Shown here: positions 42,659 to 47,334 of the stretch, in pieces
Layout of the letters: each line of letters opens with the position of its first letter
Numbering within the stretch: position 1 is the first letter of the stretch
Origin: Pseudomonadota bacterium
GTDB lineage: Bacteria > Pseudomonadota > Gammaproteobacteria > Xanthomonadales > Xanthomonadaceae
Reading direction: 5' to 3'
NCBI GenBank assembly: GCA_023394655.1
Contig: JAEXAG010000154.1
Location: 1 to 55,187, forward strand
Length of the DNA: 55,187 nt
Notes under the pieces: model-generated
Database searches by the model: none
What the model saw: only the letters and a program-made list of their open reading frames with translations
What the model was told of the DNA's origin: nothing
Made by a program: the position numbers and the translations under genes

Positions 42659-44779
42659 ATGAAATCCTCCTCCCTCCCCCTGGTCCGCCCGCTGGCGATC
42701 GCCGTCCTGTCCGCCCTCACCATTTCCGCACACGCTGCCGAAACCCCCGAAGCCGGGACCGATGCCGGTCAGCTCGATCGCGTCATCGTCAACGGCAGCC
42801 GCTACCTGCCGGCCTACCAGGCCCGCGAAGCGCGCAGTGCCACCCGCACCGATACCCCGCTGGTGGACGTGCCGCAGGCCGCCACCGTCATCACCGAAGA
42901 ACTGATGCGCGACCAGGCCATGACCGGATTGCCGGACGTGCTGCGCTACATCCCCGGTGCCGGCGTGGCGCAGGGCGAAGGCAACCGCGACACCGTGGTG
43001 ATGCGCGGCAACAGCAGCACCGCCGATTTCTTCGTGGACGGCCTGCGCGACGACGTCCAGTACATCCGCGACATCTACAACATCGAGCGCGTGGAAGCGC
43101 TGAAGGGCCCGAACGCACTGATCTTCGGGCGCGGCGGCTCCGGCGGTGTGATCAACCGCGTCACCAAGCAGGCCGACGGCCGCGAAGGCGGCGCGCTCAC
43201 GCTGCAGTACGGCAGCTGGGACCGCAAGCGCGGCAGCTTCGATTGGCAGATGCGCGTGGGTCGCGATGCCGCGTTCCGCCTCAATGGCGTGATCGAGGAA
43301 TCCGGCAGCCATCGCGACGGCCTGGAAATCTCGCGCCGCGGCATCAACCCGGTGTTCGGCATCCAGCTGGGAGAAGCCACCCGCCTCGGGCTCTCCTACG
43401 AGCACTTCCGCGACGAACGCAACGCGGATCGCGGCGTGCCGTCCATCAATGGCCGCCCGCTGGACGTGGATCCCTCCACCTTCTTCGGCAGCGCCGCGCT
43501 GAGCCCGGTGCGGGCGCGCGCCAACGTGTTCGATGCCAACTTGGTCCACGCCTTCTCGCCCGCCACCGAGCTGCGAACCCGGCTGCGCCACGGCGATTAC
43601 GACAAGTTCTACCAGAACGTCTTCCCCAGCGGCACCACCACGCTGGCCGATGGCAGCCTCGGTGTCACCCTCGGCGCCTACAACAACCTGACCCATCGCC
43701 GCAGCTGGCTGAGCCAGACCGACCTGGTCCACGAAATGCAGACCGGCGCCCTCCACCACACCCTGCTCGCGGGTTTCGAATTCGGCCACCAGCGCACCGA
43801 CAACCTGCGCATGAGCGGCACTTTTTCCGATGGCAACATCGTCCCGCTCGCCAACCCGAGCTATCCCGGCACGGTCACCTTCGCCCGCCGCGCCACCGAT
43901 GCCTGGAACGACGGCACCGCCCGCACCACCGCCGTGTACGTGCAGGACCAGATCGAGTTCTCGCCGCAGTGGCTGGCCATCATCGGACTGCGCCACGACC
44001 GCTTCGAGATCGACATGGACGATCTGCGCGGCCCGCTGCGCATCTCCAGCCGCGACAACCAGTGGTCCCCTCGTGCAGGCCTGATCCACAAGCCGCGGCC
44101 GGACATGTCGATCTACGCCAGCTGGAGCATGAGCTTCCAGCCGCGCGCCGGCGAGCAGCTGGCCTCGCTCAACGTAGGCACCCGCACGCTGGAGCCGGAG
44201 AAGTTCACCAACAAGGAACTCGGCTGGAAGTGGGAAGCGGGCGAACGGCTTTCGGTATCGCTGGCGGGCTACCAGCTGGATCGCGAGAACGTGGCGGTGG
44301 CCGACCCGGATGACGCCACCCGCATGATCCTGGTCGATGGCCAGCGCGCGCGCGGCGTGGAACTCGGCATCGCCGGGCGCATCACCGACCGCTGGCAGGT
44401 GATGGGCGGCTATGCCTGGCAGGATGGCGAGATCCTCGCCACGCAGTCGGCCAACGCACCGGCCGGCAATCGTCTGGCCCAGCTGCCGCGCCACAGCGCT
44501 TCGCTCTGGAACCGCTTCGACCTGACGCCGCGCTTCGGCTTAGGGCTTGGCGCCATCCACCGCGGCGCGTTCTTCGCCTCCACCGACAACAGCGTCACCG
44601 TCCCCGGTTTCACCCGCCTGGATGGCGCCCTGTACTGGAACGTGAAGCCGCAACTGCACCTGCAGCTCAACATCGAGAACCTGCTGGATACGCGCTACCA
44701 CGCATCCGCGCACAACAACCACAACATCGCGCCGGGCGCACCGCGAGGCGGCATGCTGACGGCACGCTTCACGTTCTGA
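42659..44779 (+). CDS. TonB-dependent siderophore receptor (Fiu/PiuA-like)
   Basis: Signal peptide, SATRTDTPLVDVPQ, GEGNRD, ERVEALKGP..IFGRGGSGGVINRVTK, NIENLLD and a C-terminal Phe. Confidence 0.93.
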   Translation: MKSSSLPLVRPLAIAVLSALTISAHAAETPEAGTDAGQLDRVIVNGSRYLPAYQAREARSATRTDTPLVDVPQAATVITEELMRDQAMTGLPDVLRYIPGAGVAQGEGNRDTVVMRGNSSTADFFVDGLRDDVQYIRDIYNIERVEALKGPNALIFGRGGSGGVINRVTKQADGREGGALTLQYGSWDRKRGSFDWQMRVGRDAAFRLNGVIEESGSHRDGLEISRRGINPVFGIQLGEATRLGLSYEHFRDERNADRGVPSINGRPLDVDPSTFFGSAALSPVRARANVFDANLVHAFSPATELRTRLRHGDYDKFYQNVFPSGTTTLADGSLGVTLGAYNNLTHRRSWLSQTDLVHEMQTGALHHTLLAGFEFGHQRTDNLRMSGTFSDGNIVPLANPSYPGTVTFARRATDAWNDGTARTTAVYVQDQIEFSPQWLAIIGLRHDRFEIDMDDLRGPLRISSRDNQWSPRAGLIHKPRPDMSIYASWSMSFQPRAGEQLASLNVGTRTLEPEKFTNKELGWKWEAGERLSVSLAGYQLDRENVAVADPDDATRMILVDGQRARGVELGIAGRITDRWQVMGGYAWQDGEILATQSANAPAGNRLAQLPRHSASLWNRFDLTPRFGLGLGAIHRGAFFASTDNSVTVPGFTRLDGALYWNVKPQLHLQLNIENLLDTRYHASAHNNHNIAPGAPRGGMLTARFTF

Positions 44780-44859: not shown

Positions 44860-45246
44860 TCAGTCGCGTCGGCCGCGTCGCCGGCGCGAGGACGCATCCT
44901 CCGGCGCCGGGCCGGACCACAGGAGCTCGTCGAGGCTCGCCTTCACGATCGCGCCACGCACCCGGCCCTCACGCACCTCCACGCCCTCGCCGAGCAGGCG
45001 CCCAACCTGCTCGATGGCATCCGCGCTGCCGGCGGGGAACGCGATCCGGCCATCACCACGCACCACCCGATGCCAGGGCAGCCCCGGCTCGCCCGCCTCG
45101 GCCAGCACCCTCGCCACCCAGCGCGCACGGCCCGGCAGTCCCGCGCGCCGTGCAATCTCGCCATAGCTCGCCACGTGCCCTTCCGGCAGCGCACGCACCG
45201 CTTCCAGCACCTTGCGCCGACACGCTTCGCGGCAGTCCTCTTCCAT
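44860..45246 (-). CDS. Alkyltransferase-like (ATL, YbaZ-like) DNA-binding protein
   Basis: ASYGEIARRAG..GRARWV and PWHRVV, with Trp in place of the MGMT catalytic Cys. Confidence 0.85.
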   Translation of the reverse strand: MEEDCREACRRKVLEAVRALPEGHVASYGEIARRAGLPGRARWVARVLAEAGEPGLPWHRVVRGDGRIAFPAGSADAIEQVGRLLGEGVEVREGRVRGAIVKASLDELLWSGPAPEDASSRRRRGRRD

Positions 45247-45324
45247 GCCGGGAGCCTGCGGCGGACGCCGCCCGGCGTCAACCACGGCGGCGTGAACGCG
45301 TTTTCAGGACGCGTCACCGCGCGC

Positions 45325-45333
45325 TGCTATGAT
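45325..45333 (+). promoter_or_regulatory. Extended -10 promoter for the leader-CNNM-exoD unit
   Basis: TG-c-TATGAT. Confidence 0.55.
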
Positions 45334-45358
45334 TCGGGTCGATTTTCGCCCGACCGCC

Positions 45359-45427
45359 ATGGACCCAGACCCCAAACCCCCGTCTCGCCCGCCCGCCTAC
45401 GCATCGAAGGAGACGGGCCGTGCTTGA
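45359..45427 (+). CDS. Putative Pro-rich leader peptide (MgtL-like), 22 aa
   Basis: MDPDPKPPSRPPAYASKETGRA. Its stop overlaps the downstream GTG start by 8 nt, and it contains CCCGTCTC, complementary to GAGACGGG at the downstream SD. Confidence 0.6.
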   Translation: MDPDPKPPSRPPAYASKETGRA

Positions 45428-46724
45428 ACTCCTGATCGTCATCGCACTGATCGGCCTCAACGGCTTTTTCGCGATGTCCGAAATGGCGCTGGTGACTTCC
45501 CGCAAGCTGCGCCTGAAGCAGATGGCCGAGACCTCGCGCGGCGCGGCCAAGGCACTGGCGCTCGCCGAGCATCCGGACAACCTGCTCTCGACGGTGCAGA
45601 TCTGCATCACCGCGATCGGCCTCCTGGCCGGCCTGTTCGGCGGCGAGGCCATCGGCGGCCTGATCGCCGGAGGGCTCGAAAGCACCTTCCCCGGCATCAG
45701 CGCCTATGCTCGTCCGATCGGCATCGGCACCGCGATGACCCTGATCACCGCCGGCTCGGTCATCTTCGGCGAACTCATCCCCAAGCGTCTCGCGCTGACC
45801 AACCCGGAGCGCATCGCGGCCGGCGTCGCCATCCCGCTGGATGCGCTCGCCACCCTCGCCAAGCCGGTAGTGCTGGCGCTGGGCGCGATCAATCGGGCCG
45901 TGCTGCGCCTGCTCGGCATCCGCGATGACGCGCGCGGCGCGATCACCGAAGAGGAAATCCAGCTGCTGGTGAGCGAAAGCCACGAGCAGGGCGTGATCGA
46001 CGACGACGAGCGCAACATGATGAACCGGGTGATGCGCCTGGGCGATCGCGATGCGGAAAGCCTGATGACGCCGCGCACCCGCATCACCTGGCTCGATGCC
46101 GAGGCCGATTTCATCGAGAACCTGTCCACGATGCAGGCCACGCCGTTCTCCCGCTACCCGGTCTATCGGGGCGACGACCGCCATGTGCTCGGCGTGTTCG
46201 AGGTGAAATCCCTGCTGCGCGATCTCGACCGCAACCGGCTCGAGCTGTTCAAGGAGCTGCGACCGGCCGTCTTCGTTTCCGAATCCACCCATGCGATGAA
46301 GCTGCTGGAAATCTTCCGCGAGGAAATGCAGTCGCTGGCGCTGGTGGTGGACGAGTACGGCGAGATCACCGGCATCATCACCGTCAACGACGTGATGGGC
46401 GCGGTGATCGGCCGCATCCAGTCGGCCGAAGGCGGCGACAAGGAACCGATGGTCGCGGCGCGCGATGACGGTTCGTTGCTGGTCGATGGCCGCCTGCCGG
46501 TGGACGACCTGCGCGAACTGCTCGGCAGCGCACGCCTGCCGGAGGAGGACGAGCACGATTACCACACCGCGGCCGGCATGCTGATCGCCCAGTTCGGACG
46601 CATCCCGCATGTCGGCGAGCATTTCGACTGGGCCGGGTGGCGCATCGAAGTGGTGGACCTCGACGGCCCCCGCATCGACAAGCTCCTGCTGCAACGGCTG
46701 GATGCCGGGGCCGGCGATGCCTGA
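45420..46724 (+). CDS. CNNM/DUF21-CBS-CorC (hemolysin-family) membrane transporter
   Basis: NGFFAMSEMAL, STVQI, FGELIPKRLA, MTPRT, SRYPVY, VVDEYG and the C-terminal CorC_HlyC IEVVDLDGPRIDK. AAGGAG SD before the GTG. Confidence 0.93.
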   Translation: MLELLIVIALIGLNGFFAMSEMALVTSRKLRLKQMAETSRGAAKALALAEHPDNLLSTVQICITAIGLLAGLFGGEAIGGLIAGGLESTFPGISAYARPIGIGTAMTLITAGSVIFGELIPKRLALTNPERIAAGVAIPLDALATLAKPVVLALGAINRAVLRLLGIRDDARGAITEEEIQLLVSESHEQGVIDDDERNMMNRVMRLGDRDAESLMTPRTRITWLDAEADFIENLSTMQATPFSRYPVYRGDDRHVLGVFEVKSLLRDLDRNRLELFKELRPAVFVSESTHAMKLLEIFREEMQSLALVVDEYGEITGIITVNDVMGAVIGRIQSAEGGDKEPMVAARDDGSLLVDGRLPVDDLRELLGSARLPEEDEHDYHTAAGMLIAQFGRIPHVGEHFDWAGWRIEVVDLDGPRIDKLLLQRLDAGAGDA

Positions 46725-47334
46725 GGCCGGACTCCGGCGGATCGGTACCCGCGCCCTGCTCGACCAGCTCAGCGAAGGCGACCCCGACGAGGTGCTGGCA
46801 CTCGACGCCCTGCTCGACGGACTGGGCCGGCGCGCTTTCGGCGTGCTGCTGTTCCTTGCCATCCCGCCGGCATTTTTCCCCGGGGTCGCGGCGGTGATCG
46901 GCGCGCCGGTGGTGATCCTGGTCGGCATGCAGCTGCTTCTGCGCCGGCAGCATGCGTGGCTGCCGCGATTCCTGGACGGCCGCGGGCCGCAACGTTCGCT
47001 GTTCGCGCGCTTCGAGGCGCGTTTCTCGCGCTGGCTGCATCGGCTCGAACGCTTGGTGAAGCCACGCTGGCCCGCCATGATCGACCACCCGCTGGCCAGC
47101 ATGTTCACCGGCCTGCTGTTGGTCCTGCTCGGCATCCTGCTGGCGCTGCCGATCCCTTTCACCAACGTGGCGTTCGCGGTGCTCCTGCTGCTGATCGCAC
47201 TGGCGCTGCTGGAGCGCGACGGCGCCCTGCTGCTCTTCGGCTGGCTCGCCGGCAGTGCGGCCGTGGCCGTGCTCGGCGTCGCCTCGGGTGAACTCGCCAC
47301 CTGGGCCGCGCGCTCGATCGACCACCTGTTCTGA
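46717..47334 (+). CDS. exoD: Exopolysaccharide synthesis ExoD family protein
   Basis: LGRRAFGVLL, WLPRF, LERLVKPRW, LALPIPFTN and LLERDG. Confidence 0.85.
   Translation: MPEAGLRRIGTRALLDQLSEGDPDEVLALDALLDGLGRRAFGVLLFLAIPPAFFPGVAAVIGAPVVILVGMQLLLRRQHAWLPRFLDGRGPQRSLFARFEARFSRWLHRLERLVKPRWPAMIDHPLASMFTGLLLVLLGILLALPIPFTNVAFAVLLLLIALALLERDGALLLFGWLAGSAAVAVLGVASGELATWAARSIDHLF

Follow-up and report, generated by a model that had tools for sequence, protein, structure and literature searches.

The 55,187-nt window analysed here (the whole stretch of contig JAEXAG010000154.1 that we examined, from a 1.77-Mb genome with 68.2% G+C and an assembly that is 78% complete) carries a gene for a CNNM/CorC-type membrane transporter (45420-46724, GTG start, 434 aa). 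In front of this gene lies a short open reading frame (ORF) of 22 codons plus stop, MDPDPKPPSRPPAYASKETGRA (45359-45427, with its ATG at 45359 and its TGA at 45425-45427), which we refer to here as the upstream ORF (uORF) or leader. The leader is preceded by TGCTATGAT (45325-45333), whose letters match the extended -10 consensus TGnTAnnnT. The Shine-Dalgarno (SD) sequence of the transporter, AAGGAG, can be read at 45407-45412. The region also contains two complementary segments, CCCGTCTC (45379-45386) and GAGACGGG (45410-45417), which form the 5' and 3' arms of an 8-bp stem, the 3' arm lying over the 3' half of the SD. All of these features are on the forward strand, and the coordinates that a first-pass annotation had given for the -10 box, the leader ORF and the stem arms all match the sequence. 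The same annotation had placed the leader stop over the transporter GTG. The two ORFs do overlap, by 8 nt (GTGCTTGA, 45420-45427), but the stop itself sits on codons 2-3 of the transporter, where CTT-GAA forms the TGA.

The transporter is a PaeA/CorB-like protein in which Pfam matches identified a CNNM/DUF21 domain (CNNM, 1.1e-46), a CBS pair (1.3e-14) and a CorC_HlyC domain (6.7e-21), in agreement with its initial assignment to the CNNM/CorC group, with the CNNM match beginning at residue 5. Directly 3' of it, also on the forward strand, a domain search placed a gene for an ExoD-family membrane protein (46717-47334). The ATG of this gene overlaps the transporter TGA by 8 nt (ATGCCTGA, 46717-46724), a geometry identical to that of the uORF-transporter junction, and we assign the two genes to one operon because of this overlap. 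An ExoD homologue follows the transporter directly on the same strand in 97/97 orthologous loci with enough DNA (among L001-L110), and CNNM-ExoD is thus a conserved operon.

The leader peptide begins with a putative sensor, the acidic and proline-rich motif DPDPKPP (codons 2-8, 45362-45382, forward strand), which combines the features of a sequence of the intrinsic ribosome destabilization (IRD) type with a Pro-Pro pair. Five of the six residues that follow Met in the window leader are Asp, Glu or Pro (D/E/P), as are five of six in the family consensus, DDDP[RTK]P. The window leader thus has the D/E/P-rich six residues after Met, free of bulky residues, that define IRD sequences, the D/E/P part of this definition being that of Chadani et al. 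Starts of this kind are rare: at only 22 of the 51,620 ATG sites genome-wide do the next four residues consist entirely of D/E/P with an acid and a Pro both represented, and the window leader is the sole short ORF abutting a gene among them. The 21 remaining sites start long ORFs or fall within other frames, and no other D/E/P-start leader was found in the 78%-complete genome. Proline occupies positions 3, 5, 7, 8, 11 and 12 of the peptide and forms two Pro-Pro pairs in the contexts KPPS and RPPA, with no PPP. Of 87 uORFs, 50 have a PP and 21 a PPP among their first 14 residues. Since PP and PPP are frequent early in the uORF, the leader may additionally sense elongation factor P (EF-P) or the proline supply. 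An alternative in-frame ATG at 45329, inside the -10 box, would give a 32-aa form, and this longer frame is not kept in relatives. The leader gene is unannotated, and none of 10 uORF peptides, including that of the window, was present in a collection of 15 billion proteins (0/10).

The unannotated, proline-rich ORF noted in the first pass is real and conserved family-wide. In the window's genus and its sister genus, a uORF starting MD[PDES][DE]..., MDEP... or MT.ATPDEPP... precedes the transporter in 23/25 orthologous loci, and named public relatives with the same feature include Solilutibacter tolerans (82% identity), Lysobacter, Luteimonas, Thermomonas, Pseudoxanthomonas and one Stenotrophomonas sp. 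These relatives assign the window organism to Lysobacteraceae (Xanthomonadales). For a wider comparison we kept 105 unique loci, after dropping four duplicates and one locus short of upstream DNA, 98 of them with an orthologue of at least 60% identity. These 98 comprised 66 loci with a uORF starting M[DE], 19 with Pro-first variants (MPRPTPEPP.RRR, MAPPDPLP and MT.ATPDEPP), seven that were unclear and six with none. Across the family Lysobacteraceae, 277 of the 300 genomes drawn and 58 of 64 genera carry a transporter orthologue; this tally counts five genomes flagged as unpublished (G207, G294, G281, G232 and G122), the sequences of which were not used. With one locus taken per genus, M[DE]-type leaders occurred in 36 of 55 further genera (38/57 when the window's genus and its sister are added) and variant leaders in three more; the 16 remaining genera had mostly orthologues of 60% identity or less. 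Conservation among Xanthomonadales relatives, a check proposed in the first pass, was thus found, at 66/98 loci in the M[DE] form alone, with 86 D/E/P-rich ORFs in a broader set of 147 loci described below.

In a tree of 119 transporter sequences, every one of the 67 MD-type leaders and 20 of the 21 Pro-first leaders fall within a single clade of 102 rows (SH-aLRT 92), and among the 17 rows outside it a leader occurs in a single long-branch row. The simplest history suggested by this tree would be that the leader arose once, changed to Pro-first forms at least twice and was lost several times. As leader labels are shared among kin, counts across related genomes are not counts of independent events. 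Separately, we observed that genomes of the window's genus carry transporters belonging to two distinct tree clades (L001-L014 and L016-L025), one with MD-type leaders and the other with MT.ATPDEPP/MDEP-type leaders that group with Thermomonas-like sequences; this reflects either a heterogeneous genus or a replacement of the locus.

Several properties of the aligned leaders indicate that it is the peptide that is selected. The consensus of the 66 M[DE] leaders is M-D-D-D-P-[RTK]-P-P-P. In these leaders, the information content is periodic by codon: Pro codons 5, 7, 8 and 9 carry 0.6 to 1.4 bits at positions 1-2 and 0.19 to 0.53 bits at position 3, values to be read with the caveat that codons 1-2 are invariant by our own selection of sequences and that choosing the most D/E/P-rich candidate biases codons 3-8 somewhat, although in practice there was one uORF candidate per locus. 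Asp and Glu exchange freely in the M[DE] leaders, with the charge kept. The free third positions of the Pro codons and the tolerated D/E exchanges suggest that selection acts on the peptide. Conservation is confined to the first ∼9 residues, the remainder varying both in length (20 to 55 aa) and in sequence, and the 5' untranslated region (5' UTR) is unconserved: in the 30 nt before the uORF, no position other than -2 exceeds about 0.6 bits.

The end of the uORF is constrained as well. We collected all ORFs starting with ATG-[DE] and having at least four D/E/P in residues 2-8 from 147 unique loci, with no filter applied to where they ended. This yielded 86 ORFs of 20 to 55 codons, and all of them (86/86) terminate at positions -5 to +16 relative to the transporter start; in most loci the stop lies 1 to 16 nt beyond it. 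For comparison, the other two frames are open across the same interval in 53/87 and 57/87 loci. The uORF frame relative to that of the transporter is +1 in 42/87 loci and +2 in 45/87, and each frame class has its own way of providing the stop. In the class that needs a stop at +6 to +8, transporter codons 2-3 read NNT-GAR in 34/36 loci (CTT in 26), whereas the same combination occurs in 1/49 loci of the other class, which obtains its stop from CTG-ATC at +14 to +16. This covariation between the uORF stop and codon 2 of the main gene (34/36 versus 1/49) implies that the end of the uORF matters and that it constrains a synonymous site of the transporter gene. The stop position is therefore under selection, and the leader belongs to the class of overlapping uORFs in which selection holds the stop to a few nucleotides from the main start.

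The promoter element is conserved too, in agreement with the initial description of an extended -10 box. In 82 of 87 uORF-bearing loci, the 60 nt upstream of the uORF ATG contain TGnTAnnnT, and the spacing between box and ATG is 22 to 26 nt in 45 of these 82, the window having 25 nt. We predict from these letters that transcription starts ∼7 nt 3' of the box, which would leave a 5' UTR of about 15 to 19 nt (some 18 nt in the window). One subclade has the box 9 nt before the uORF ATG, and in two close relatives that have lost the uORF, L016 and L021 (genomes G014 and G020), whose sister loci retain the 9-nt spacing, the box TGCTAAGAT stands 6 nt before the transporter ATG; these short spacings suggest leaderless or near-leaderless initiation.

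The N terminus of the leader resembles sequences that are known to destabilize translating ribosomes. In MgtL, the motif EPDP directly after Met aborts translation within the first six residues, and this is enhanced by low Mg2+ or loss of bL31; the resemblance proposed in the first pass holds, with M-DPDP-K in the window against the active EPDP of MgtL. More generally, enrichment of D/E/P in the six residues after Met predicts ribosome drop-off, small residues favouring the effect (Chadani et al.). The N terminus of YbeX/CorC, MSDDNSHSSDT, causes ribosome drop-off and has been proposed to raise expression at high Mg2+. In Salmonella, acidic codons of mgtQ control the translation of mgtB, counteracted by bL31. 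Replacement of the yoaL start codon lowers translation of MgpA (YoaE), and a Mg2+-sensing role has been proposed for it. Finally, corB rises with intracellular Mg2+ by a mechanism that current Salmonella work states to be unknown.

Against this background, we consider it moderately probable that the 22-codon ORF is translated into a leader peptide that acts in cis to control the CNNM-exoD operon, in a wiring that mirrors that of MgtL. A mirror image of mgtL-mgtA had already been suggested, and given the D/E/P motif and the selected overlap of stop and start it is the most economical reading, from which we infer the following mechanism. The functional part would be the first 8 to 10 residues, that is, the acidic/Pro cluster right after Met. 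This start would make the ribosome fall apart, or stall at the Pro codons, and more so at low Mg2+. Ribosomes that complete the uORF would arrive at the transporter start and allow re-initiation, local opening of the RNA, or both, and the translating ribosomes would also keep the C-rich leader RNA covered. At high cytoplasmic Mg2+ or polyamine levels, ribosomes would pass the motif and the exporter would be made; at low cation levels, early abortion would mean that neither the exporter nor ExoD is made, a shut-off that Rho loading on the C-rich leader could reinforce. The coupling would thus be positive, the signal would be Mg2+ or another cation and the transported substrate would be exported. 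Probably, then, it is the ribosome itself that decides when the exporter is made.

A number of observations weigh against this proposal. The positive sign of the coupling is drawn from physiology and from YoaL, since a uORF that crosses the main start could equally occlude it. IRD has been demonstrated for E. coli ribosomes only, and the Pro-first variants have no acidic residues at positions 2-4. Initiation at the uORF is the weakest point of the coding interpretation, an SD core preceding it in only 3/87 loci. The transporter start, in turn, is preceded by an SD core of its own in 46/98 loci, the AAGGAG of the window included, and coupling may thus be facultative. Loss of the uORF has occurred repeatedly (6/98 loci have none), and the transporter gene is evidently expressible without it. 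Because related genomes are not independent, the genome counts given above overstate the support. A two-hexamer scan of the window region for promoters and terminators returned no site of either kind, and since no promoter was found in this way, the -35 element must be poor. Four RNA-library runs yielded contigs only of relatives' conserved coding parts, and positions 45200-45404 were uncovered. The best NCBIfam match of the transporter, PaeA (NF052568), scored 275.6 bits against a cutoff of 500 bits, too low to assign the protein to the equivalog of the polyamine exporter PaeA (YtfL), and the second match, PRK11573 (156 bits), is described there only as 'hypothetical protein'. We take PRK11573 to be the YfjD/CorB model.

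The most direct rival is the hairpin switch that the first-pass annotation had favoured, in which pairing between the Pro-coding stretch CCCGUCUC and GAGACGGG would mask the SD until a ribosome paused on the Pro-Pro codons frees it, so that stalling rather than completion would activate the transporter. We consider such a switch decidedly unlikely. The stem is real in the window: CCCGTCTC is perfectly complementary to GAGACGGG, the 8 bp are present in the minimum-free-energy fold, a perfect 8-bp stem arises in just 162/5000 shuffles of the leader (3.2%), and the duplex of the window is in the best 9% when compared with pairings against the ribosome-binding site (RBS) regions of other loci. Sister loci L002 and L005 likewise fold the Pro-codon stretch onto the pre-start region, and mgtQ is described as acting through release of a sequestered RBS. 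As a conserved switch, however, the stem is not supported. The leader is no more stable than its shuffles (z +0.77; 153 of 200 shuffles at least as stable), and a comparable stem occurs in 2198/17430 of the 101-nt tiles of the genome (12.6%). Over 87 loci, early uORF segments pair with the pre-start region no better within their own locus than across loci (-20.33 versus -20.31 kcal/mol, and in 49% of loci the own duplex surpasses the median of the cross duplexes), and against shuffled segments the duplex has a mean z of +0.42 (-0.41 in the window). In half of the orthologues there is no SD core that could be masked. Covariation in the stem is absent as well: RNAalifold on 15 close leaders of the window's clade gave -0.9 kcal/mol and five pairs, none of them covarying. 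The pairing may just reflect C-rich Pro codons opposite a G-rich pre-start region, and it may help locally in the window species. A longer-range pairing, between GACGACGA (uORF codons 2-4) and UCGUCGUC (main codons 6-8), was rejected as the trivial complement of Asp and Val codons: uORF GAC-GAC-GA and the transporter I-V-V codons ∼80 nt 3' reach -15 to -19 kcal/mol in L003, L004, L006, L007, L013 and others, the pairing is weak in the window (-7.6 kcal/mol), and it is probably a by-product of codon complementarity. The RNA could also matter through Rho. In Salmonella, Rho-dependent control of the mgtA and corA leaders works through translation of a leader ORF. Here, uORF translation would shield a C-rich Rho site, and drop-off would expose it, ending transcription before or inside the transporter gene. 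Such attenuation, which we rate as unlikely, has the same sign as the leader-coupling model, and both could act together; our tests do not separate it from translational coupling. The leaders are suitably composed, with mean values of 46% C and 27% G across 92 loci and 45.9% C and 24.6% G in the window, an excess matched by 2% of genome tiles. This C-richness is automatic, however, because of the Pro codons, the naked stretch would be merely ∼60 to 110 nt long before the translated gene begins, and the scan showed no terminator-like site.

The remaining rivals concern the role of the ORF itself. Should translating ribosomes block the transporter start, abortion at low Mg2+ would relieve the block and the transporter would be produced under cation scarcity. 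With the stop 1 to 16 nt past the main start in most loci, elongating ribosomes do cross the initiation site, and both the SD cores of the 46/98 main genes and the retention of the gene in lineages that have no uORF fit a repressive uORF. It would, though, be physiologically odd for a PaeA/CorB-like exporter, when CorB, MgpA and CorC are reported to rise at high Mg2+, and yoaL, the single overlapping uORF that has been tested in this gene class, activates. A stop selected to lie right at the start also fits re-initiation better than occlusion, and we hold repression to be very unlikely. We find it highly improbable that the ORF is untranslated and the conserved ATGGAYGAYGAYCC block serves as a signal in DNA or RNA (a regulator site, say, or a piece of an unknown riboswitch), or that the peptide acts in trans as a small protein. 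The scarcity of SD cores before the uORF (3/87) and the absence of the ORF from public annotation (0/10) would be natural on that account. Against it stand the freedom of the Pro third positions and the D/E exchanges, both of which point to peptide selection, and a frame that stays open to the main start in 86/86 cases despite length changes, with a stop that covaries with main codon 2. Neither an Rfam match above threshold nor a conserved fold was found: the window leader gave no family at threshold and only four weak matches (E 1.3 to 8.5, far below gathering, none of them Mg_sensor), and 20 orthologous leaders gave no match at E ≤ 1. Moreover, some nine conserved residues followed by a variable tail are typical of a cis-acting nascent peptide and not of a folded microprotein. 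There is, finally, virtually no chance that a programmed +1 frameshift at CCC-CCG produces an N-terminally extended leader-transporter fusion, an alternative raised in the first pass. The transporter frame is indeed open back to a TGA at 45330-45332, but open upstream frames are common at 68% G+C, the other frames being open in 61 to 66% of loci. Orthologues align from residue 1-2 of the 434-aa protein, which begins with the CNNM membrane domain, and since the uORF occupies either non-zero frame (+1 in 42/87, +2 in 45/87), no single conserved slip direction is possible; we therefore rejected this candidate. The one in-frame fusion, in locus L043 of a Thermomonas sp. metagenome bin, goes with a 1-nt indel. 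We note this locus also for its own sake, as the 1-nt difference from its sisters that fuses the leader frame to the transporter may be an assembly error or a real mutation.

Beyond the operon, the intergenic region that contains the leader is bounded on its other side by a divergent gene (44860-45285, reverse strand) that lies outside the element and encodes the DNA-binding domain of an O6-methylguanine methyltransferase (MGMT; PF01035, 9.6e-18). Only this domain was seen in the gene, which may thus encode an alkyltransferase-like protein. Farther upstream, a domain search identified a TonB-dependent receptor gene on the forward strand (42659-44779).

Acidic N termini are found in a second gene of this group of bacteria. 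The soluble, YbeX-like CorC paralogue starts M-x-[DE][DE]-P/T/D-D/S-S in 10/10 relatives (loci L111-L120, from genomes G003, G004, G007, G013, G014, G017, G018, G019, G023 and G024), for example as MSEEPDS or MADEPDS; no such paralogue was found in the window's own 78%-complete assembly. The DPDP-like N termini that the first pass had mentioned for some CNNM proteins were not seen on the membrane CNNM orthologues. Because the membrane protein starts directly with the CNNM domain, a plausible reason for the separate uORF would be that the sensor was moved into it. We tentatively suggest, as a possibility that falls short of probable, that acidic/Pro N termini are a general, convergent sensor of cation excess for CNNM/CorC-type exporters, which would read the Mg2+- or polyamine-dependent stability of the ribosome. 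Such a sensor would take the form of an overlapping uORF in Lysobacteraceae, and in Enterobacteria it would be built into the YbeX/CorC ORF or exist as YoaL. If true, this would answer how bacteria switch on Mg2+ and polyamine efflux at high Mg2+ without a dedicated regulator, the leader being a concrete candidate mechanism for exporter induction under Mg2+ excess that needs no regulator protein. It would likewise extend the MgtL/IRD principle from low-Mg2+ importers to high-Mg2+ exporters, and from Enterobacteria to another order. Independently of this, a small unannotated gene is added to an operon of most genomes of the family (277/300), and the covariation of the uORF stop with main codon 2 provides a case of a regulatory ORF that constrains synonymous codon choice in the gene it would control.

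In our literature searches, which did not extend to subscription journals and supplements, we found no leader peptide described in front of CNNM/PaeA/CorB genes of Xanthomonadales. We compared the window leader with better-studied systems of similar design. Like that of MgtL of E. coli and Salmonella, its short ORF occupies the 5' leader of a cation-transport gene, and both peptides start M-[DE]-P-D-P followed by further Pro and Arg (MDPDPKPPSRPP in the window and MPRPTPEPPERRR in relatives, compared with EPDPTP in MgtL). This is a likeness of motif, as the peptides are too short for homology to be tested. Unlike MgtL, which controls the P-type ATPase importer gene mgtA, the window leader would control a CNNM-type exporter gene, and the expected sign is the opposite, with the exporter on at high cations. 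The window uORF overlaps the start of the gene it would control, whereas the MgtL ORF ends far upstream, and neither the window leader nor its orthologues contain Mg_sensor, another Rfam element or conserved alternative stem-loops.

Further parallels come from genes linked to Mg2+ transport. YbeX/CorC of E. coli shares an acidic N terminus placed before a CorC-domain function related to Mg2+ efflux, as the soluble CorC of the relatives does (10/10), but there the motif is within the protein itself, while in the window locus it lies in a separate, overlapping uORF. In YoaL/mgpA (yoaE) of Salmonella and E. coli, a small uORF overlaps the start of a gene for a CorC-domain membrane protein that is induced at high Mg2+; the main protein is of the TerC-CBS-CorC type and of another lineage, and the likeness is one of position. 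The 8-codon mgtQ between mgtC and mgtB of Salmonella is likewise a tiny ORF with destabilizing Asp/Glu codons before a Mg2+ transporter gene, although it works by undoing a defined stem-loop that sequesters the RBS and favours an importer at low Mg2+; no conserved stem was found in the window family. On this comparison, we regard the window leader as one that would work in the manner of MgtL and other IRD sequences while standing outside the mgtL-mgtA leader family.

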